Below the pieces are notes generated by a model. That model saw only the letters and a list, made by a program, of their open reading frames with translations, was not told the origin of the DNA and ran no database searches. Of a stretch of DNA of 64,000 nt, positions 6,857 to 62,260 are shown in pieces. The position numbers and the translations under genes were made by a program. How positions within the stretch are numbered: position 1 is the stretch's first letter; every line of letters begins with the position of its first letter. This DNA is from Candidatus Peribacteria bacterium (lineage in GTDB: Bacteria > Patescibacteriota > Gracilibacteria > UBA1369 > 2-02-FULL-48-14), in the NCBI GenBank assembly GCA_943349825.1, contig CALQZQ010000006.1, positions 17,582 through 81,581 on the forward strand. The letters run 5' to 3'.

Positions 6857-7495
6857 TTACTTCTTGGTATTAAATACTAATCCTTTGTTGATCCAGACTT
6901 TCACTCCAATCGCACCGTAGGTCGTTTTGGCGGTAGCCTTGGCGAAGTCGATATCGGCACGGAAGGTATGCAAGGGGATTTGCCCTTCTGCATAGAACTC
7001 TGTACGTGCGATTTCAACTCCGTTCAAACGTCCACTCACACGAATCTTGATTCCTTTTGCTCCAGATTCAATCGCTTTCTTCAGGGCCATCTTGGCAGCA
7101 CGGCGGTAAGATACACGTCGTTCCACTTGCATGGCGATGTTTTCAGCCACGAGCCAAGCATCGAGTTCAGGCTTCTTGATTTCTTTGATGTTGATCGTGA
7201 ACTTGTGTCCGAATTTCTTTTCGAGAGCCGCTTTGAGGTCTTCTACGCTAGCACCTTGACGTCCGATGATCACACCCGGCTTAGCAGAGTGGATGTTGAG
7301 GATGATGTCTTTAGCGTTGCGTTGCAGTTCTACTTTGGAGACTCCACAGTCGTTCAACTTGACACGTACGAAGTCACGGATTTGGATGTCTTCTTTTAGC
7401 ATCTTGCCAAACGCACGGTCGCTGGCGTACCAGCTGGAATCCCAGGTTCGGATGATACCGATTCGCAGCCCAATTGGATCAACTTTACTTCCCAT
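6857..7495 (-). CDS. rpsC: 30S ribosomal protein S3
   Basis: MGSKVDPIGLRIGI N-terminus with a KH-domain pattern. Confidence 0.96.
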   Translation of the reverse strand: MGSKVDPIGLRIGIIRTWDSSWYASDRAFGKMLKEDIQIRDFVRVKLNDCGVSKVELQRNAKDIILNIHSAKPGVIIGRQGASVEDLKAALEKKFGHKFTINIKEIKKPELDAWLVAENIAMQVERRVSYRRAAKMALKKAIESGAKGIKIRVSGRLNGVEIARTEFYAEGQIPLHTFRADIDFAKATAKTTYGAIGVKVWINKGLVFNTKK

Positions 7496-20542: not shown

Positions 20543-21142
20543 TTATTGAGCTTCACGCGCCTGGGCGGTTTCGTAAATCATGACGGCCATTTCTGCTCGT
20601 GTGATGAGCTGATCAGGGCTTGTAATGGATTCAGGGGTTGCGCCTAGATCCTCTACCATGTCCACGTAGGGCTGGTACCAGGCTCCGTTGCTGGAGAGTT
20701 CTCCGGAGTCGAAAGCCAGCATGGTCATTTTTGCCGCTTCGGCAAAGTTCACGTCGTTGTCTGGTTTAAAGCTCTTGTCGGAGTAACCGCTGATCACGTT
20801 TTCATCGTAGAGTTTGTGGAGATAAGGAGCGTACCAAGCGTCTTGATCGATGTCATAAAAATCGAGCCAAGAAGTGAAGTCGGCACTTTCAGCATCGAAT
20901 TCGTAGGCAGCAATAGCGAGTATTTTTGAGAATTCAGCGCGATTGATGGTGTCGTCGGGATGGAAGCTCCCATCGGGGTAGCCACTCAAGATTCCATCTT
21001 CTTTGAGCCAGCGAATTTCCCAGTAGGCATCGTCGTATTCCTGAACGTCTGTAAAAACGTCTGGTTCAGGGGCGATATCTGCCAGCACGATGGAAGGCAG
21101 GGCAGTGAGTGTGAACAGCAGCAGTGTGAAGAGTTTTTTCAT
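20543..21142 (-). CDS. secreted protein made of three SLH (S-layer homology) repeats
   Basis: Signal peptide MKKLFTLLLFTLTALPSIVLA. The SLH pattern is FTDV...YWEIRWLKEDGILSGYPDGSFHPDDTINRAEFSKIL, seen three times. Confidence 0.8.
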   Translation of the reverse strand: MKKLFTLLLFTLTALPSIVLADIAPEPDVFTDVQEYDDAYWEIRWLKEDGILSGYPDGSFHPDDTINRAEFSKILAIAAYEFDAESADFTSWLDFYDIDQDAWYAPYLHKLYDENVISGYSDKSFKPDNDVNFAEAAKMTMLAFDSGELSSNGAWYQPYVDMVEDLGATPESITSPDQLITRAEMAVMIYETAQAREAQ

Positions 21143-21163
21143 GGCGTTGAGTTAAGGGTGAAT

Positions 21164-21805
21164 TTAATTAGAAGGACAGACTCCGTCGTTGTCCTCGGTG
21201 ACGTCTTCCATGCCGTCCACCAGTTGAGCCATTTCGACTCGAGTGACTTCTTTAGCGTACCAAGGGCTGGTGTCTTCTTGGATGGAGTCGGGCACTACTT
21301 CTAGGTCGAGGAGTTTGGTGGTGTAAGGTTCCCACCAAGAATCGTAGCCTTCTGTGATGACAAAACATTCGTAAGAATTCACGAGGACTTTCGCCGCTTC
21401 GGCGAAGTTGATGGTGTTGCTTGGTTTGAAAGTGCCGTCGTCGTAGCCGGAAATCACGTTTTGAGTGAATAACTTGTGGATATAGGGTTCAAACCAATCT
21501 GAAACATTGATGTCGCTGAAGGGAAGTTCGCCGCCCAGCGTGTCTGTGGAGGGGTCATGATCCCAAGCTGCGGTAGAAACGATTTTGGCGAACTCGGCGC
21601 GATTCACGGTATTGTTGGGTTTGAAACTGCCGTCGGCATAGCCGGAAATGATGCCAGCTTCTTTCAAATCATAGATTTCCCAGTAGCCTTCGTCTCCGTA
21701 TTCCACATCGTTGAAAAGGTTGGGTGGAGGCGCATCGTCTGCTAATGCCATTGAGGGGATGGCGCTGAGTGAAAGCAGCAGAAGGCCAGCGAGGAGTTTA
21801 TTCAT
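21164..21805 (-). CDS. secreted SLH-repeat protein, tandem paralog of 20543-21142
   Basis: Signal peptide, then FNDV...YWEIYDLKEAGIISGYADGSFKPNNTVNRAEFAKIV. It has the same three-repeat layout as its neighbour. Confidence 0.8.
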   Translation of the reverse strand: MNKLLAGLLLLSLSAIPSMALADDAPPPNLFNDVEYGDEGYWEIYDLKEAGIISGYADGSFKPNNTVNRAEFAKIVSTAAWDHDPSTDTLGGELPFSDINVSDWFEPYIHKLFTQNVISGYDDGTFKPSNTINFAEAAKVLVNSYECFVITEGYDSWWEPYTTKLLDLEVVPDSIQEDTSPWYAKEVTRVEMAQLVDGMEDVTEDNDGVCPSN

Positions 21806-45837: not shown

Positions 45838-45864
45838 TTAGCACTCAGCATATTAGTGTGCTAA
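45838..45864. promoter_or_regulatory. CIRCE operator (HrcA binding site)
   Basis: TTAGCACTC-N9-GTGTGCTAA differs at one position from the consensus TTAGCACTC-N9-GAGTGCTAA. It lies 16 nt upstream of the dnaK ATG. Confidence 0.85.
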
Positions 45865-45874
45865 GTGCGGGGCG

Positions 45875-46306
45875 TCAAGAGTTTATGAGTCTATGGAGAC
45901 GCATGCCCGCCTCGAAACTTTTGCAGCTCAGTAAATCTTTTATTATGGGTTCAAGTTTTATTCGGAGGGGATTGTCAGAGGGAAGATCCTCTATTTCATC
46001 CATCAATCGCTTTAAACGGGTTGGGTCCTGAGTCCCCATGCCGAGACAACTCACGTAGGAGCTTGCTGCGTTGGCTACCCGTGCGATGAGGCTGGTGGGT
46101 GCCGTTACGGAGTCGATTTGCTCTCGACTTCTGGCGCGTTGAGCGGCCAGAGCCCTTTCTTGAGCTGCCGCTCTTTGCGTGGATTCTAATCCTCTTAGGC
46201 GCGCTTCTTCGGCTCTTTGAGCCACTCGTGTTTTTTGTCGATCGAGCATGCTTCCTCCGTCTTTGATCATGGGCGCATCCGCTTTGTTCCATTCAGGCTC
46301 CTTCAT
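45875..46306 (-). CDS. hypothetical 143-aa protein inserted between grpE and dnaK
   Basis: Arg/Ala/Gln-rich helical N-half. No motif. Confidence 0.5.
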   Translation of the reverse strand: MKEPEWNKADAPMIKDGGSMLDRQKTRVAQRAEEARLRGLESTQRAAAQERALAAQRARSREQIDSVTAPTSLIARVANAASSYVSCLGMGTQDPTRLKRLMDEIEDLPSDNPLRIKLEPIIKDLLSCKSFEAGMRLHRLINS

Positions 46307-46371: not shown

Positions 46372-46857
46372 TCACAATTTCCCCACCATTACTTTGGCGG
46401 GGCGGATGGTTTTTCCGTTGAAAGCGTAGCCTTTTTCAAAAATCTGAACCACGTGGCCGGCGGTGCCGTCTCCTTCCATCAGCATTTCGTGGCGATGAGG
46501 GTCGGCGGGCACATCGATTTGATCGATGACTTCCAGGCCCAGATCAGTGAGGGCTTTCAAAAGGTTGGACTCGATGGCTTCGACTCCTTTCACCCATTCG
46601 TTGCTTTTGAGTTCTTCGGGCATGCTGCCGAAGGCGCGGGCAAAGTTATCGAGGGCGGGGAAGAGGGCTTCCAGAAATTTGCGGTTGGCAAAGACTTGGA
46701 TTTCGCCCCGTTCTTCGTCGGTGCGGCGTTTGAAGTTTTGCAAATCGGCCATGGCGCGCTTGGCGGTTTCGGTCATCGCGGCCAGGTCCGCTTGGAGCTG
46801 GGTGACTATGGGGTCCTGGGTGGTGTTGTCCTGAGGGGGGTTTTGGTTGGTGTTCAT
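46372..46857 (-). CDS. grpE: nucleotide exchange factor GrpE
   Basis: DLQNFKRRTDEE and the C-terminal GYAFNGKTIRPAKV pattern. Confidence 0.93.
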   Translation of the reverse strand: MNTNQNPPQDNTTQDPIVTQLQADLAAMTETAKRAMADLQNFKRRTDEERGEIQVFANRKFLEALFPALDNFARAFGSMPEELKSNEWVKGVEAIESNLLKALTDLGLEVIDQIDVPADPHRHEMLMEGDGTAGHVVQIFEKGYAFNGKTIRPAKVMVGKL

Positions 46858-46901: not shown

Positions 46902-47717
46902 ATGAAACGTCTTTTATCCCTCGCTTTCTTGCTCGCGTTTTCAATGAATATTTTCAGTGTCGCAGCGGTAGAAACCGATCCTACGGACCAGCCTTGCGGG
47001 GAATGGGACGACGTGTCTTCCACTTATATGGATGTGATCACCGACGTTTGTGAACGTGGAATCATGGCGGGCTTGGGATCCTCCAATTTTGACGGTGACT
47101 TTGGTATTTCTCGCGCTATGGCGGCTACGGTGGGCAGCCGTATTGCCATGGGGCCCGATGATTTTAATAGCATGGAAGATGCCAACAGTTTTTATATCGA
47201 TCAGTTGCAAAACTATTTCACGGATGTGCCCACGAACGACGAGTGGAACAATTGGCTGCTCAAGGCCATGTACTATGCTAGGACTCAGCATGTTATGAGT
47301 GGAGATGCCAATTCGGGTGGAGTTACGACTTTTCGCTATAATGATGATGTGACCACCGCAGAGATCTTGAAAATTTTATTCGAAGCGGCGGATGCCAGGG
47401 ACGTACTCAATGTTTCGGATGCTTCTTCGGTGAGTTACGATGGCAGCCCTTGGTATGCGGATGTCGTTGCGGAATATTACGCTATGGGAGTGATCAATAG
47501 TTATAGTGCTGATGGCGGTGAGGGCGATTATATCCAGTTTTACATTTACTACGACACGTCGGACAGCTCTAAAAAGAACCTCATTCGTTTGGGGCTCAAT
47601 GACGAGATCACTCGCCAGAATGTGGCTTTCCTCGTTTACGAAATGATCGATCAAGGCATGATGGAGGATCCGAATGGAGATCTTCAGGAAGTTCCGGATA
47701 CGATAGGGAGGCTTTAA
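46902..47717 (+). CDS. secreted SLH-repeat protein (third SLH gene in window)
   Basis: A signal peptide and three SLH-like repeats (W.DV....I..V...GIM.G......F.G...ISRA). Confidence 0.7.
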   Translation: MKRLLSLAFLLAFSMNIFSVAAVETDPTDQPCGEWDDVSSTYMDVITDVCERGIMAGLGSSNFDGDFGISRAMAATVGSRIAMGPDDFNSMEDANSFYIDQLQNYFTDVPTNDEWNNWLLKAMYYARTQHVMSGDANSGGVTTFRYNDDVTTAEILKILFEAADARDVLNVSDASSVSYDGSPWYADVVAEYYAMGVINSYSADGGEGDYIQFYIYYDTSDSSKKNLIRLGLNDEITRQNVAFLVYEMIDQGMMEDPNGDLQEVPDTIGRL

Positions 47718-47805
47718 AGCCCGCCGCTTTCCAGCAAGTCTCTCACCTGCGTGAGGATAGCGCTGTTGTAGGCATAAGGCATACGCTTGGGGCCGAGGAG
47801 CCCAG
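47714..47805 (-). pseudogene. remnant copy of the last ~28 codons of hrcA
   Basis: About 82% nt identity (64/78) with 49181-49259. It translates as [29 protein letters not shown], against [29 protein letters not shown] at the end of the intact hrcA. Confidence 0.85.
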
Positions 47806-47830
47806 CGGGGTCTTGCTTATTTTGATATTA

Positions 47831-47839
47831 TGTTATAAT
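47831..47839 (+). promoter_or_regulatory. extended -10 (TGtTATAAT) upstream of 47860 gene
   Basis: TATAAT at 47834-47839. The ATG is 20 nt downstream. Confidence 0.55.
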
Positions 47840-47859
47840 ATGCACTTCTAATCTAAAGT

Positions 47860-49170
47860 ATGCCTGAGAGAGTCGCCACTATTACAGGAGTAAGAGATCC
47901 CATTCCTTTGGTTCTGGCGCAACGTTATCGAAGAGGTGAAGAAGAAGATGAGGACGGTTTCCATGTCGAAGGGGATACATTTGGTGGATCTTACCTTAGT
48001 GCTATCAAAAGGATTGCACGTTTCGAGAACATACAAGCTAAGCCTATGCTTTTGGAGATTGAAAGGGGAAGAAGTGCCGTACTTCTGACTCAGACTCTCG
48101 GTACCATGAAGGAGTTATCCAATCGTCCTGTTACCCGCCCTTTGGTGGAGCGGTGGCTTAGCGCTTTGCATGAACCTATTGCCACTCAGACTACAGTTCC
48201 ACAGGCTTTGCAATTTTTTCAAAATACGCCCTATCCTCCTCAAGAGGTTCCTGACATTCTCAGGGTAGCTTTTCGTATCCAGAGTTTAGCAGAATCGATG
48301 GGTAAAGGTGAAATGGCTCCTGAACTTCTTTATCCTTTGCTTGCTGCATCAGAGACAAAAAATAACTTGGCCCAAGGAAAGCTTGAAATCTTTCTTGCTG
48401 CCCATTGGAACCGCTTGGTAGAACAAGTGGTTCAACATTTTTGCCGTGAACTCCCCGGGTCTGAAGCTTTGATTCGTGAACGGATAAAAGCAAGGGCTGC
48501 TTTTATTCATTTTAAAATCACCGATTTTTTGGCTTTGGTGGATTTGGACGACGATGTACGTCGATTGAGTGGGACTTGGAGTGTCACTAACGGTGAGATG
48601 ATGCTTTCGAGTGCTTTATTTACCCGAGATCTAGGAAAGCTGGAGCATGTGATTCTTCATGAACTGTCTCACGCTGTTTCTGGGGTGAATTTAGAGGTTT
48701 CCGTTTACGATGATGACAGTCTCTTGGATGGTGAAATGCCACGAAATCACGATGAACTTGTGGAAGCTCTTTACGACACTCCTCTTGATCTTGGGTATAA
48801 AAGAGCTTTGGATTTGGGGAACGGTTATCCTACGTGGCTGGTGGAGGCCATTACGGAGGGCGAAGTGGTTGATATGATGCAAGCTGAGGAGCCGGAATCT
48901 TTTTACCCACATGAGCGTGGTTTGCGGGCCTTTTTACAGAGCGCTCCTACGGTAAGAAGGGCTTTGCCGGCGGCCTATTTGGAGTTGCATGATGATGACA
49001 GTGGTTTTGCGGGTTTACATGTAGCTTGTTCGCAGCATTTTGGAGAGAATTCACTCCGTCTTTTGGACAGTGTGGTCGCCAAACATCGCCCCGAAGGGGC
49101 TCTCACAGTTGTGCGAGGATTTCATGGAAAGTCGGTTGATTTTGCTCGATATCTGAAGAGTCAACTCTAG
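47860..49170 (+). CDS. orphan soluble protein with HExxH zinc-metallopeptidase-like motif
   Basis: 436 aa. [12 protein letters not shown], plus downstream [10 protein letters not shown] as a possible third ligand. There is no signal peptide. Confidence 0.55.
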
Positions 49171-49892
49171 AGTAAATTGTTTTCCAGTAAGTCTCTCACC
49201 TGCGTTAAAATCGAACTGTTGTAGGCGTAGGGCATGCGCTTGGGGCCCAGGAGTCCGATGATGCCTTGGTAGCCGTCGTAATCGTAGCGGGTGAGAATGA
49301 TGGAGCAGCTTTCGATGCCCTGGAGTACGTTTTCTTCGCCGATGAAAATTTTGGCTTCGGCGTCTACTTCAATGTTTTGCAGCGAATGGAGAAAATGGCT
49401 TTGGTCTTCAATCACCTCCATTACTTGGCTGGCTTTGAGCGGAGCTTCCATGAACTCGGGTTGGCGCAGCATTTTTGAAAAGCCCATGAAGAAGGTGCGG
49501 TCGTTTTCGGGAATGGTGGCGAAGGCCATGTTGGGGCTGGCTTGCGACAAAAGGGCCACGGCGTCGTTCACGCGTTGCTTGGCGTTTTGAGCGCGGTGCT
49601 GGTTCATCAGCGTGTGCAAGGTTTGCGTGGCCAGAGCTTGGGCGCGGCCGTAATCGGCGAGTTCGTCCACATAAAGACGGTAGCCTTTGTCGGTGGGCAC
49701 GCGGCCGGCAGAGGTGTGGGGCTGCATGATGAGTCCGGCCTCTTCCAAATCCGCCATGTCGTTGCGCACGGTGGCGGGGCTCACTTTAAAATTGTAGGTG
49801 AGGATGATGGTTTTGGATCCCACCGGTTCCGCCGTCTGAACAAAGTGCTCAATGATGGCGCTGAGGATTTGGTTTTTGCGGGTGTCGGTCAT
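49167..49892 (-). CDS. hrcA: heat-inducible transcription repressor HrcA (short, 241 aa)
   Basis: N-terminal w[28 protein letters not shown]...[18 protein letters not shown]. Confidence 0.9.
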
Positions 49893-49907: not shown

Positions 49908-50915
49908 TTATTCGCGGCTCGCCATGTACGCGGCGAGGTCGATGCAGCGCAGGGAATAGCCCCATTCGTTGTCGTACCACGCGAGGATTTTCACGAAGTT
50001 GCCGGTTTTGCCGAGCACTTGAGTTTCTCCGGCGTCGAAGATGCTGGAGTGTTTGTCGCCTTTGAAATCCATGGAGACCAGAGGTTGATCGGTATAGCCC
50101 AAAATGCCTTTCATTTCTCCTTCGGAAGCGGCTTTCATGGCGGCGTTGATTTCTTCGGCGGTCACGTCTTTCTCGAGTTCAGCGGTGAGATCCACGAGGG
50201 AAACTACGGGAGTGGGCACGCGTAGGGCGATGCCGTGGAATTTGCCGGTGAGTTCAGGCAGCACGAGCCCGATGGCTTTGGCGGCACCGGTGGACGTGGG
50301 GATGATGTTGAGGGCGGCGGCACGGGCGCGGCGGAAATCTTTATGGTCGTTGTCGGTGAGGTTCTGGTCGTTGGTGTAGGAGTGCACGGTGGTCATGAGT
50401 CCACGTTTGATTCCGAAGTTTTTGCTGAGCACTTTGGCCACAGGAGCGAGACAGTTCGTGGTGCAGCTGGCGTTGCTCACAATGAAGTCTTTGGCGGGAT
50501 CGTACTCGGTGTGGTTCACGCCCATCAGCAAAGTGTGGTCGATTTCATCCTTGGCGGGAGCAGAAATCATCACGCGTTTGGCGCCGGCGGTGATGTGTTT
50601 GGAAGCGCCTTCCTTACTAGTGAAAGCTCCGGTGCATTCGATCACGAGGTCGATTTTGAGATCTTTCCAAGGGAGAGCCAGAGGGTCTCGGTTTTGCACC
50701 AGGATGGTTTCTTTGCCGTCGACAGTCAGTTTTCCGGGTTCACCCTTGATCTCCATGGGAATGGTGCCGTAGTTGGAATCGTATTTGAGCAAATGCGCGG
50801 TTTGTACGGGGTCTCCGAGGTCATTCACTGCCACGATGTCGATGGTGGGGTTCATTAAATTCGCACGAAAGATCATTCGTCCGATTCGGCCAAAGCCATT
50901 GATGGCAACACGCAT
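49908..50915 (-). CDS. gap: glyceraldehyde-3-phosphate dehydrogenase
   Basis: INGFGRIGR and SNASCTTNCLAP motifs. Confidence 0.98.
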   Translation of the reverse strand: MRVAINGFGRIGRMIFRANLMNPTIDIVAVNDLGDPVQTAHLLKYDSNYGTIPMEIKGEPGKLTVDGKETILVQNRDPLALPWKDLKIDLVIECTGAFTSKEGASKHITAGAKRVMISAPAKDEIDHTLLMGVNHTEYDPAKDFIVSNASCTTNCLAPVAKVLSKNFGIKRGLMTTVHSYTNDQNLTDNDHKDFRRARAAALNIIPTSTGAAKAIGLVLPELTGKFHGIALRVPTPVVSLVDLTAELEKDVTAEEINAAMKAASEGEMKGILGYTDQPLVSMDFKGDKHSSIFDAGETQVLGKTGNFVKILAWYDNEWGYSLRCIDLAAYMASRE

Positions 50916-51219: not shown

Positions 51220-52277
51220 AGTTTAAGTTCTGCCGCAGGCTCGGTGTATTGCTTGGCTTTGCTGAAATAAGTGGAATGGAGCCAGCGGGTTTCTTGGGTG
51301 CCGTCGCCGTGGGTGAGGAGGTATTTCCAGACGATTTCTCCGATGCCCAGGTCGCCGACATTGCTTAGGGTTTCCTCGGTTTCGTTGCTGGCGGTGTAGG
51401 GCCCGATCAGGGTGGTTTCGCGCCCGTCATCTTGTCCATAAAAACGGATCGTGGCTTCGTAGTAGCCTTCTTCTTGCGCCACCATCAAAAGGTAGTTGGG
51501 AGTGTTATTCACAAATTTGAGGTCTTGTTCGTCGGGGAAGACAGTGGCGTCCAGGCCGTCGCCGTAATCGTTGTAGTAAATGACATAGAGGCTGTGGTTG
51601 CGTTGCTCGGTGATTTCGAGCGCGGCGTCGAGTGCGGCGCGGTAAACGGTGGTGGAGACTTGGCACACGCCACCGGCGGGAGCGGGTTCTGCCACTTTGC
51701 CATCCACAATCACGAGCGCACGCTTCCAGCCTCCGTACTCAATCGGGCCGAGGAAATCCAGGTAAGAAAATTCGCCTCCTGGTGGAATGAGCACGCCGTT
51801 GAATTTTTCGTTGAGAGCCTTTCTTATATTGAACTCGCGCTCGGGTGAAGATCCCCAAAAGGTGGATTTCCCCTCGCCGAGCAGTTGCAGTGGGCCTAGG
51901 TCCACGCCGGTTTCATTGAGGATTTGCCCGGGCAGCTTTTGGATGAAGGGTGTGTTTCGCCCCAGGGTGATTTGCAGGCGAGTGAGGAAGTCGATGAGGT
52001 GGTATCCGTCCGCTATTGTGCCGGTTTGGGTGACCTTGGAAACTTGCGTGGGATCGGCGGCGGTGATGTGGATGTCTTTCGCGGGCGAGTCCACGAGAGA
52101 GTGCAGCGTGCTGGTGACGTAGCTGAGGAAGGCCGGCGTGAAGCCCGTGGGAGTGAGATCTTTTTCTTGAGTGGGGAAGGTGTAGGTGGTTCCGTTGGCC
52201 TCTATTAAAAGATCCGCGTGGGCGGTGGGGGCGGCGAGCAGGAGTGCTGTTGCCAGCGTGAGGTAGGCGATTTTCAT
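51216..52277 (-). CDS. VanW-family protein, secreted
   Basis: The ATG at 52277 gives the signal peptide MKIAYLTLATALLLAAPTAHA. VanW core PAGGVCQVSTTVYRAAL. Confidence 0.8.
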   Translation of the reverse strand: MKIAYLTLATALLLAAPTAHADLLIEANGTTYTFPTQEKDLTPTGFTPAFLSYVTSTLHSLVDSPAKDIHITAADPTQVSKVTQTGTIADGYHLIDFLTRLQITLGRNTPFIQKLPGQILNETGVDLGPLQLLGEGKSTFWGSSPEREFNIRKALNEKFNGVLIPPGGEFSYLDFLGPIEYGGWKRALVIVDGKVAEPAPAGGVCQVSTTVYRAALDAALEITEQRNHSLYVIYYNDYGDGLDATVFPDEQDLKFVNNTPNYLLMVAQEEGYYEATIRFYGQDDGRETTLIGPYTASNETEETLSNVGDLGIGEIVWKYLLTHGDGTQETRWLHSTYFSKAKQYTEPAAELKL

Positions 52278-52403
52278 GGATTCAATTGTAGCAGTGTTGG
52301 GGCTTGCGCCAATGGTGAGTATAGCCTCACCACAATTGTGCAAAACGAGCCAGTCGAAGTATGTTTTTTGTCAGGACTTTTGGTGACGGGTGGGGGTAAA
52401 ATT

Positions 52404-53237
52404 ATGGCGTCTTTTAATCTGTTAAATATGACTGATGAACAACTCCTTCGGCTCTGCGAAAAATTTGGGAAACGGGCACTGCTGTGGCGGCAAAAGTTTA
52501 CAGGACTACTGCCGGAAGTGAATCGGCGGCGGCTTTATGAGAAGCGTGGGTGTCAGAGTATTTTTGAGTTTGCCTACAAACTTGCCGGACTTTCCAAGGA
52601 ACAAGTTCAGAGGGCTGTTCAGTTGGAAAGGACCTTTTTGGACAAACCGGCGCTTCACGAACTCTTGGTGCGGGGTCAGGCGAGTTTGAGCAAGCTCGCT
52701 AAAATAGCCTCCGTTGCTACTTTGGAAAATGAGGAATTTTTGGCCGAGCAGGTGAAACGTTTACCCAGAAAAGCCTTGGAAACTTTGGTGAGGGACGAGC
52801 GTGTTTTTGAAAAGCAAAATGGCGTACCAAAGCCATTATTTGCGGTAAAAGTTGTTCCCGGGAACAACTTTGAATTGTCCGATGAAGTGGTGCAAAAGCT
52901 GAGGCGCCTCCACGAGCAGGGGCAGGATGTGGATGCGATTCTTTTGGGGCTTCTTGAGCTACGCGAGGAAAGGATCGCTCGAGAGAAAGAAGAAGTTGCG
53001 AGCGGGTTGAAGGCTACGGATTCTCATTATATTCCGGTGAGGGTACGCCGCGTGCTTCGGGAGGAATTCGGCAAAAAATGCTCCATTATGACTTGCCCAA
53101 AACCCGCTGAAGAAATCCACCATACTCAACGGTTTTTTTTGGGACGTTCACATGACCCGCACTATCTTGCGCCCCTTTGTCACGAGCATCATCAGCTGGC
53201 GCATGCCGTGGATGTGCGCGTGAGGGAGCATTGGTAG
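52404..53237 (+). CDS. HNH endonuclease with N-terminal helical (DUF222-like) domain
   Basis: The ATG at 52404 gives MASFNLLNMTDEQLL. The C-terminal HNH motif is EIHHTQRF...APLCHEHHQLAH. Confidence 0.75.
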   Translation: MASFNLLNMTDEQLLRLCEKFGKRALLWRQKFTGLLPEVNRRRLYEKRGCQSIFEFAYKLAGLSKEQVQRAVQLERTFLDKPALHELLVRGQASLSKLAKIASVATLENEEFLAEQVKRLPRKALETLVRDERVFEKQNGVPKPLFAVKVVPGNNFELSDEVVQKLRRLHEQGQDVDAILLGLLELREERIAREKEEVASGLKATDSHYIPVRVRRVLREEFGKKCSIMTCPKPAEEIHHTQRFFLGRSHDPHYLAPLCHEHHQLAHAVDVRVREHW

Positions 53238-61435: not shown

Positions 61436-62260
61436 CTATTCCCCCCTGCGTGGCGCCGGCTTTGTAGTTGGCGCTGCAGGTGGGGTAGTATCTCTTGGGG
61501 GGGTCGCAGGTGTAACAGGAGCTGCAGGCACTGGAGGAGGATTTTGTGCGGGTGCAGTAGGTGTGGCTGAAGGCGCCCCGTCTGTCACGGTTTTTGAACC
61601 AGGAGCTGCAGGCACTGGAGGAGGATTTTGTGCTGGTGTGGTAGGAGGTAGTGAGGGTGCTGCGTCAGGCGCGGTTTTTGAACCAGGAGCTGCAGGCACT
61701 GGAGGAGGATTTTGTGCGGGGGCTCCAGGTACAGCTGGGGGAGTTGCAGTCTTAGCATCCGGTAGGTAGGGGAAAATATCTACGCTTACGTTGCTAAATC
61801 CACTCGCTACACTTGAGGCGGCGCGGGTGATGGTCAGTTTACCTCCCACTACGGTCATGGTGTCTCCGGGGAAGAGGGAGTTGATTTCCTTGCCACTGGG
61901 TTGGCTGAGCATGTAGCGGTAAGCCAAGAGCATCAGTTTTGAGGTACTCAATTGGGCAGCCGGTACTTTGTCGAGGAGTACTTTCGTCACGCTATCGCCG
62001 GATTTTGCAGTATAGCCAGGCATGTTTAGCGCAATTTTTGGAGGAATAGCGCTGGCGACGTCGGTTGCTAATTTGTCTCGCTGAGTAGGCGTATTTTTAG
62101 CGTACTCTAAGGCGTGCGTAGTCGCTTTACCGGAACTAGCATCGGTCCAACGTTCTCCTCCCGCCGCTTCCAAATACATTTGTCGGGAGGGATTTTCGAA
62201 GTGGGAAAGACGTTTGCAGCGCAGCATTTTGTTTTTGTTAAATTCTTTACATTCTAACAC
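61436..62260 (-). CDS. protein with C-terminal Pro-rich 28-aa tandem repeats
   Basis: 274 aa. The repeat (T/A)PAQNPPPVPAAPGSKT occurs three times. The N-terminal start is uncertain because several Met lie in the first 30 aa. Confidence 0.55.
   Translation of the reverse strand: MLECKEFNKNKMLRCKRLSHFENPSRQMYLEAAGGERWTDASSGKATTHALEYAKNTPTQRDKLATDVASAIPPKIALNMPGYTAKSGDSVTKVLLDKVPAAQLSTSKLMLLAYRYMLSQPSGKEINSLFPGDTMTVVGGKLTITRAASSVASGFSNVSVDIFPYLPDAKTATPPAVPGAPAQNPPPVPAAPGSKTAPDAAPSLPPTTPAQNPPPVPAAPGSKTVTDGAPSATPTAPAQNPPPVPAAPVTPATPPRDTTPPAAPTTKPAPRRGE
61518..61720. repeat. three copies of an 84-bp tandem repeat (in-frame, coding)
   Basis: The core ggagctgcaggcactggaggaggattttgtgc recurs at 61518, 61602 and 61686. 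Confidence 0.9.

Follow-up and report, generated by a model that had tools for sequence, protein, structure and literature searches.

A headless hrcA 3' end and an inserted HExxH gene between hrcA and grpE in Candidatus Peribacteria

The locus described here lies in a 64-kb stretch of DNA, referred to below as the window, from an uncultivated bacterium of the candidate phyla radiation (CPR) that was placed in Candidatus Peribacteria by its HrcA protein. Between hrcA and grpE the window carries a second, headless copy of the hrcA 3' end, and the two hrcA ends enclose an orphan gene encoding a protein with an HExxH motif. The overall best explanation, and one we consider probable, was a repeat-bounded recombination scar in a variable hrcA-grpE spot, with later cassette-like movement of the enclosed unit. 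The kind of scar is already known; what is novel is the coding-type change of the remnant between genomes that share the junction, together with an orphan that looks much younger than its surroundings.

Two hrcA ends and the interrupted hrcA-grpE junction

The segments 47728-47803 and 49181-49256 form a direct repeat in which 64 of 76 nt are the same (84%) at an offset of 1453. At this offset 85 of 131 nt matched, compared to merely 29 to 33 of 131 at adjacent offsets. The repeat had been reported in an earlier reading of the sequence (the original prediction) as 64/78, and this count was reproduced when the first copy was followed out to 47805; the second range given there (49181-49259) was one base too long. 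It is the sole repeat of its kind in the window, the two further families of at least 40 nt being intragenic. The longest identical runs within it were 17, 11, and 11 nt, none of which was marked as an att core.

Translation of the minus strand identified the second copy as the true end of hrcA and the first as a headless remnant, as originally proposed. The 25 aligned core codons were found to differ by 10 synonymous changes and a single nonsynonymous one (Ala/Ser), with free divergence over the final four codons, and the ratio of nonsynonymous to synonymous divergence (dN/dS) was ~0.035 at a synonymous divergence (dS) of ~1. The functional tail contains NSS-IL and ENNLL, with AGT TCG ATT TTA at codons 14 to 17, while the remnant contains NSA-IL and ESGGL, with AGC GCT ATC CTC at the same codons; the copies differ at 9 of 15 nt in the tails and at 6 of 12 nt in codons 14 to 17. 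Both NSS..ENNLL and NSA..E-x-G-x-L are natural variants of Peribacteria HrcA. The nucleotides of ENNLL are those of a closer relative (L089) except in the last Leu codon and the stop (CTC TAG versus CTA TGA), and the E-x-G-x-L type of the remnant resembles ENGAL (L088) and ENGTL (L093). These data support the assignment of the two tails to the ends of two diverged, once-functional hrcA alleles rather than to a decayed in situ duplicate, and the copies would differ mainly at synonymous sites because both ends had been working genes. The alternative natural allele states and the low dN/dS are thus in agreement with the original prediction on this point. The further suggestion that the synonymous differences predated the join was correct in part only, since five changes on the functional branch of the window came after it.

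Each copy ends in a stop that overlaps the stop of a convergent plus-strand gene, TTAA at 47714-47717 for the remnant and CTAG at 49167-49170 for hrcA, as had been described. At its other end the remnant stops abruptly at 47805/47806, and beyond this point there is at most a weak CAAG similarity.

The ancestral arrangement was deduced from 18 relatives, 13 of them species-level (L004-L016) and 5 closer contigs (L087-L090 and L093) with HrcA 90 to 98% identical to that of the window (98% for L087). In all of them hrcA is followed by grpE on the same strand. The two genes mostly overlap or lie ≤25 nt apart, commonly as CTATGA, where the hrcA stop overlaps the grpE start; in L093, a 198-aa gene is found at the junction instead. 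The orphan was absent at this site from all 18, as were the remnant and a second gene, encoding an SLH-like secreted protein. Since the site is uninterrupted in the relatives, the lineage of the window is deduced to have gained 2.3 kb between the hrcA stop and the grpE start. The insertion therefore comprises two genes and not one as first proposed, and the remnant sits between them, in the middle of the insertion and not at its edge. The comparison supports hrcA-grpE adjacency as the probable ancestral state, interrupted in the window. The wider claim that an hrcA-grpE-dnaK operon had been split did not hold for dnaK, which was already separate: it has its own CIRCE (controlling inverted repeat of chaperone expression), and in relatives grpE and dnaK are separated by variable genes.

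A breakpoint could be located by comparison with L087. Over the final 66 nt of hrcA, the window and L087 are distinguished by 20 sites, whereas the remaining gene has ~6 per 66 nt. This places the breakpoint at the start of the repeat and implies a history for the 3' end that differs from that of the hrcA body. At the right-hand edge, the GrpE N terminus (46828-46857) reads MNTNQN in the window and in contig L086 (described below), whereas every relative with a grpE start overlapping the hrcA stop has MTDD, so this edge of the insertion has also remodelled the first grpE codons.

No comparable scar was found in a scan of 16 related loci (~180 kb). Of two metagenome scans, one was empty and the other gave a chance match to an unrelated high-GC contig (L097). 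Positions 1-170 and 2449-2618 of L021, a related Peribacteria locus, form a 170-nt direct repeat of 87% identity with a spacing of 2448 nt, which could represent paralogous genes or another scar.

Divergence between the window and a sister contig

A Joint Genome Institute (JGI) contig, L001, has the same junction and the remnant, with an orphan 90% and an HrcA 99% identical to those of the window. Its remnant tail is EQGGL. Identical copies in a relative with this arrangement had been named as evidence that would speak against the original prediction; in L001 the copies were diverged, an outcome that favors the prediction. An assembly artefact was rejected, as the same arrangement was observed in independent ENA/Logan assemblies (L002 and L003) and in L001, which is 6 to 13% diverged. 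The gap sequences placed the window and L001 as sisters relative to L087 (37 versus 64 differences).

Between the window and L001, the remnant core carries 8 synonymous changes and 1 nonsynonymous change (dS, 0.65; dN/dS, 0.03), which is indistinguishable from hrcA (dS, 0.55; dN/dS, 0.016). The probability that at least 8 of 9 random substitutions in the remnant would be synonymous was calculated to be 8e-5 to 4e-4. The dS of gap was 0.31 and that of vanW 0.55, and values for gap, hrcA, vanW, grpE, and the SLH-like gene together spanned 0.31 to 0.73. The dS of the orphan was only 0.12, making it 3 to 5 times less diverged than its flanks. This was supported by the differences at fourfold sites, which amounted to 8 to 9% in the orphan and 20 to 67% in the flanks, and by Fisher tests of the orphan against hrcA (p=1e-9), the orphan against the flanks (p=1e-9 to 5e-5), and the remnant against the orphan (p=0.005). 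Base composition as the source of the low value was rejected because GC- and AT-ending codons of the orphan gave the same 8 to 9%. The low-divergence block extends from ~47806 to ~49220, which is one repeat period, with flanks at the level of host genes on both sides. From the low dS, the insert is deduced to be younger than both flanks or to have been exchanged more recently.

The branch lengths of the two tails were lopsided, with 1 versus 8 changes for the remnant and 5 versus 0 for the functional end. Crossover fitting to the four tail sequences produced a consistent mosaic (window at approximately codons 10 to 13, L001 at approximately codon 1), with too few sites to favor it over differences in branch length. 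Gene conversion between the copies within a genome was also considered and was rejected, there being no excess of similarity except at one AGA/AGG site.

Despite its coding pattern, the remnant cannot be translated from a normal start. No ATG, GTG, or TTG stands in frame before its internal Met, an in-frame TAA that the window has upstream is replaced by CAA in L001, and the upstream codons are not conserved. Two longer frames were tried as the origin of the pattern and were rejected. A minus-strand open reading frame (ORF) holding the remnant exists in L001 (43 codons, GTG start), but the window has its TAA there and the upstream codons are unconserved; a plus-strand ORF sharing the wobble phase of the remnant, in the SLH-like gene's frame, is cut short by TAG and TAA within 20 codons, and the in-phase changes go on past them.

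A different arrangement was observed in L086, a contig from the same JGI sample as L001. At L086:1630-1751, grpE is followed by the same 44-nt spacer and by an SLH-like gene 89% identical to that of the window. The contig departs from the window ~27 nt before the SLH-like stop and continues with an antisense transketolase-like N-terminal part (…AAGSGHPRGSLSAVEIL…) in place of the remnant. Either the locus has a third arrangement here or the contig is chimeric. No transketolase was found in the 64-kb window.

Proposed recombination and alternative explanations

The sequence of events that would account for these data begins with an ancestor in which hrcA ran straight into grpE. In related lineages, the junction would then have received two alternative fillings, an HExxH gene converging on hrcA with a CTCTAG overlap and an SLH-like gene converging on hrcA with a TTAA overlap. 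Recombination between such lineages, anchored on one side by hrcA homology and closed on the other by an illegitimate join at 47805/47806, would have put an hrcA end, the HExxH gene, and its promoter before the last 29 codons of the other allele, which was thereby beheaded to give the remnant. Subsequently, the 1453-nt unit between the hrcA ends may have behaved as a cassette. Host homologous recombination at the repeats that bound it, Campbell-like and without an integrase, would have moved it from one background to another or else removed it and put it back. The remnant of each genome would then have been the host's own functional hrcA end until recently or intermittently, which would explain both its coding-type substitutions and an orphan several-fold younger than the flanks. 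The original prediction of recombination between related lineages is hence supported for the join of two diverged functional alleles and not for the gene content, and there was no indication that gap arrived with the insert.

Several features of a displacement scar are present: one side holds a conserved anchor, homology ends abruptly at the other, and the pieces derive from diverged alleles. One feature of a cassette is likewise present, as the unit corresponds to a single repeat period and has a younger history than the flanks on either side of it, with two lineages available for the comparison. Of the two parental arrangements, the hrcA-orphan type was observed (contig L094, see below), while the hrcA-SLH type was not found. 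It is tentatively suggested, as a possibility that we lean against, that a 1.45-kb integrase-free cassette of hrcA tail, HExxH gene, and promoter spreads among Peribacteria, entering and leaving hrcA solely by host homologous recombination through a portable hrcA tail, in which case either tail could become the working end after excision and both would be under purifying selection.

Several observations weigh against the proposed events. The predicted orphan-free parent, with an E-S/Q-GGL hrcA tail converging on the SLH-like gene, was not found, the HrcA matches of at least 86% identity all having other tails. The remnant and the functional end are equally far from the nearest outgroup, L087 (17 of 75 nt each), and the remnant is therefore not the "native" one by this measure, although the hrcA end of L087 may itself be recombinant, its grpE also being more diverged. 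At the functional 3' end, 6 synonymous sites separate the window from L001, an intermediate value that is not cassette-like (p=0.02 versus the orphan). A wholly host-derived remnant in L001 needs a crossover within ~16 nt of the junction, which is improbable by plain homologous recombination. Finally, the population argument rests on two lineages, one of which, L001, is a 5-kb metagenome contig and possibly a strain mosaic.

One alternative is a single old insertion that the window and L001 both received by vertical descent. The remnant would then be an ordinary pseudogene with a synonymous pattern due to chance, and the low divergence of the orphan would stem from a later allelic replacement confined to that gene. 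The sister relationship in gap and the identical junction fit with this, merely 9 core substitutions are at issue, and host-gene dS varies from 0.31 to 0.73, so that genealogies would be mosaic anyway. It was nevertheless judged unlikely, since at least 8 of 9 changes were synonymous (p≤4e-4), third positions of the remnant differed from first plus second positions (p=0.005), both edges of the low-divergence block coincide with repeats, and the branches are lopsided (1 versus 8 in the remnant and 5 versus 0 in the functional end). The coding pattern of the remnant and the younger orphan together make a single old insertion followed by decay inadequate. Duplication in place, through staggered repair or target duplication when the orphan inserted, would yield copies identical at birth of which the remnant has since decayed. 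Here the supporting evidence is the block ACG CAG GTG AGA GAC, which is common to both copies and present in no relative, the copies being closer to each other than to any outgroup. However, the tails and codons 14 to 17 differ in ways that match natural allele variants, dN/dS between the copies is ~0.035, and the changes in the remnant are nonrandom by codon position (8 of 9 synonymous), making this origin very improbable. A function for the remnant itself received equally little credence. It could be a microprotein mimicking the HrcA C terminus or part of the 3' untranslated region of the SLH-like gene acting antisense to hrcA mRNA, and in either case the pattern would reflect purifying selection. 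In its favor, dN/dS is 0.03 between the two genomes, the frame is open for 29 codons in both, and a plus-strand transcript here would be 84% complementary to the end of the hrcA mRNA. Against it, there is no start upstream of the internal Met even though three synonymous changes sit upstream of it, the TAA/CAA difference and unconserved upstream codons noted above apply, and no Shine-Dalgarno-like sequence precedes the Met. There was also no RNA structure signal (z=−0.3) and no Rfam match, and changes in the remnant do not follow those in the functional copy, as selection for pairing would demand.

An integrative element has a known precedent. In Escherichia coli, icd extends into prophage e14, a C-terminal pseudogene (icdC) lies at the far end, and excision leads to a functional icd/icdC chimera (PMC13626634); the integration of e14 and phage 21 at the icd 3' end, leaving icdC, is credited there to Hill et al. 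1989. The likeness to the hrcA locus consists of a housekeeping gene whose working 3' end runs into the insert, a headless copy opposite, and an excision that would yield a functional chimera. The icd copies at e14 also differ mostly at synonymous sites. The insert could be the relic of an integrase-driven element of the e14/phage 21 type that had the hrcA 3' end as its target, brought a replacement hrcA end and later lost its integrase and most other genes, leaving the HExxH gene. In addition to this match in architecture (PMC13626634), the site is empty in L087 and the 17 other relatives, two clades have the hrcA-orphan junction while their relatives are without it, the junction is identical in two genomes with diverged flanks, and a crossover must fall very near the repeat edge. 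e14 differs in being a 15-kb prophage with a site-specific recombination system, while the hrcA insert is 1.36 kb with one nonrecombinase gene. Neither Pfam nor PHROGs gave a recombinase domain for its single ORF, the 10 kb to each side contain no annotated integrase, phage and viral collections (phage tblastn and viral contigs) yielded no relative, and the hrcA end of L094 is native-like instead of a shared element-borne end. We therefore doubt this origin.

Known systems without an integrase are comparable to the preferred reading, a homology-anchored scar. In Rhs, CDI (contact-dependent growth inhibition), and type VI secretion system (T6SS) effector-immunity arrays, displaced "orphan" 3' modules have been attributed to a proposed homology-facilitated illegitimate recombination (PMC5361080). 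As there, an upstream coding stretch would anchor the incoming DNA, the old 3' part is displaced and kept, no integrase is involved, and successive events could stack genes. Unlike those polymorphic toxin and immunity genes, which are under diversifying selection, the anchor here is the tail of a heat shock repressor, and the displaced piece is 29 codons of no obvious selective value. Homology-facilitated illegitimate recombination itself is documented in E. coli during conjugation (PMC3240628) and, as cited in PMC5361080, in bacteria capable of natural transformation (de Vries & Wackernagel 2002; Prudhomme et al. 2002; Meier & Wackernagel 2003). The one-sided homology anchor and the abrupt nonhomologous junction at 47805/47806 resemble such events. 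Experimental events usually delete recipient DNA and do not leave a duplicated stretch, and the hrcA locus differs in keeping one. A Campbell-type single crossover of a circle leaves direct repeats around the insert, with the head-bearing copy functional and the other headless. The mobile unit is then one repeat period, in keeping with the low-divergence block; the hrcA homology is, however, only ~92 nt at ~85% identity, and neither a circular form nor junction reads were observed.

The locus represents a specific gene gain within a conserved heat shock cluster of an uncultivated CPR bacterium, and it shows related Peribacteria exchanging DNA by fine-scale recombination. If the unit moves by means of a borrowed hrcA tail, no dedicated recombinase would be needed for small accessory genes to spread. 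Such movement would explain how a gene fragment can look selected though unexpressed, and the cassette would represent a minimal kind of mobility, carried by a gene end, in bacteria whose genomes are tiny.

The orphan gene and the surrounding locus

The features of the locus are listed in Table 1. In the direction of hrcA (minus strand), the order is gap, hrcA, orphan, promoter, remnant, SLH-like gene, 44 nt, grpE, 143-aa ORF, CIRCE, and dnaK.

Table 1. Positions of genes and other features at the hrcA-grpE-dnaK locus of the window
Feature	Position	Strand	Basis or remarks
dnaK, 642 aa	43894..45822	-	ORF; HSP70 Pfam annotation on identical locus L002
CIRCE operator (HrcA binding site), just upstream of dnaK	45838..45864		TTAGCACTC-N9-GTGTGCTAA, 1 mismatch; chance expectation 0.02
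143-aa ORF between grpE and dnaK	45875..46306	-	No family match; relatives have other genes in variable spacer
grpE, 161 aa	46372..46857	-	Pfam GrpE E=1e-33
SLH-like secreted protein, 271 aa, signal peptide	46902..47717	+	SLH E=0.0019, below cutoff; GC content at third codon positions (GC3) 0.54
Headless hrcA 3' remnant, codons 213-241 + stop (core 47728-47803)	47714..47805	-	NSA..ESGGL; stop overlaps SLH-like stop (TTAA, 47714-47717)
Junction, abrupt end of hrcA homology	47805..47806		Identical in window and L001
Putative orphan promoter	47813..47839	+	TTGCTT, 15-nt spacer, extended -10 TGTTATAAT at 47831-47839; predicted from sequence
Orphan HExxH gene, 436 aa	47860..49170	+	HELSH 48658-48672; WLVEAITE 48835-48858
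hrcA end, functional copy (repeat core 49181-49256)	49167..49259	-	NSS..ENNLL; stop overlaps orphan stop (CTCTAG; CTAG at 49167-49170)
hrcA, 241 aa	49167..49892	-	Pfam HrcA C-terminal domain E=6.6e-24; HTH_DeoR; 277 homologues
gap (glyceraldehyde-3-phosphate dehydrogenase), 15 nt upstream of hrcA	49908..50915	-	Pfam Gp_dh_N, Gp_dh_C

The original description of the orphan, with a promoter-like TGTTATAAT motif, HELSH, and no signal peptide, was confirmed. The putative promoter has a short spacer and was left unlisted by a consensus promoter scan. The orphan has a GC3 of 0.39, compared to 0.66 to 0.72 for its neighbors, and its composition is foreign. It is a real coding gene, with a dN/dS of 0.36 between the window and L001. 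No hydrophobic N terminus, signal peptide, or membrane segment was found in the product (maximum 19-residue Kyte-Doolittle hydropathy of 1.1), which is predicted to be cytosolic and carries a zincin-like HExxH...E motif. Among billions of proteins, P0002-P0005 were the only ones related to it. The motifs HELxHA(V/I)S and WL(N/V)E(G/A)xTE are kept in the four homologues that cover the region, P0004 being an N-terminal fragment that stops short of it. Searches gave no significant Pfam, PHROG, PDB-sequence, phage, or viral match, with SprT-like and DUF6782 below threshold, and the AlphaFold model was unusable (predicted local distance difference test score, 39). Judging from the conserved motifs, a metallopeptidase is the best guess.

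Within the orphan, positions 48259-48303 are hypervariable: the window and L001 differ at 16 of these 45 nt (L001 peptide, RVDFEVTNLVDSIGK), against ~4% in the rest of the gene, and a 12-nt indel is located at 48799-48810.

The homologue P0003, on contig L094, is 45% identical to the orphan and converges on hrcA with the same CTCTAG overlap. The hrcA gene of L094 belongs to the clade of L007 and L009, in both of which hrcA-grpE is uninterrupted, and its end is native-like for that clade. The arrangement in a second clade indicates that the pairing of hrcA and orphan is old or recurrent. The most distant full-length homologue, P0005 (24% identity; L095:7469-9329), comes from another genome, in which it and a 172-aa ORF separate rpsG from fusA within an otherwise conserved str operon; no duplicated gene ends were seen at that site. 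The family appears to recur as an insertion within operons of housekeeping genes. On the same contig, a 39-nt palindromic terminator-like element is repeated on both sides of rpsL-rpsG (L095:6243-6281 and 7392-7430).

The SLH-like gene was diverged to the level of host genes (dS of 0.73 versus L086), and its homologues (~50% identity) were located at unrelated loci. The insertion leaves grpE 44 nt from this divergent gene and without a CIRCE of its own, raising the question of how grpE is transcribed and regulated. The sole CIRCE of the window adjoins dnaK, and a scan of the window found none upstream of gap-hrcA or grpE. Both components of an HrcA/CIRCE regulon, an HrcA protein and a CIRCE before a chaperone gene, are nonetheless present. 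Typical HrcA is ~340 aa and longer than the version of this clade, which is ~241 aa throughout; the Pfam HrcA match begins at profile position 82 of 215.

Elsewhere in the window, a 339-aa ORF at 52218-53237 (plus strand) with an HNH-endonuclease-like C terminus (PHROG E=1.6e-6) overlaps the start of the opposite-strand vanW-like gene. Three tandem 84-nt repeats (67 to 80% identical) at 61511-61762 and three dispersed 69-nt repeats at 20726-21649 are in both cases probably within genes for repeat-containing proteins.

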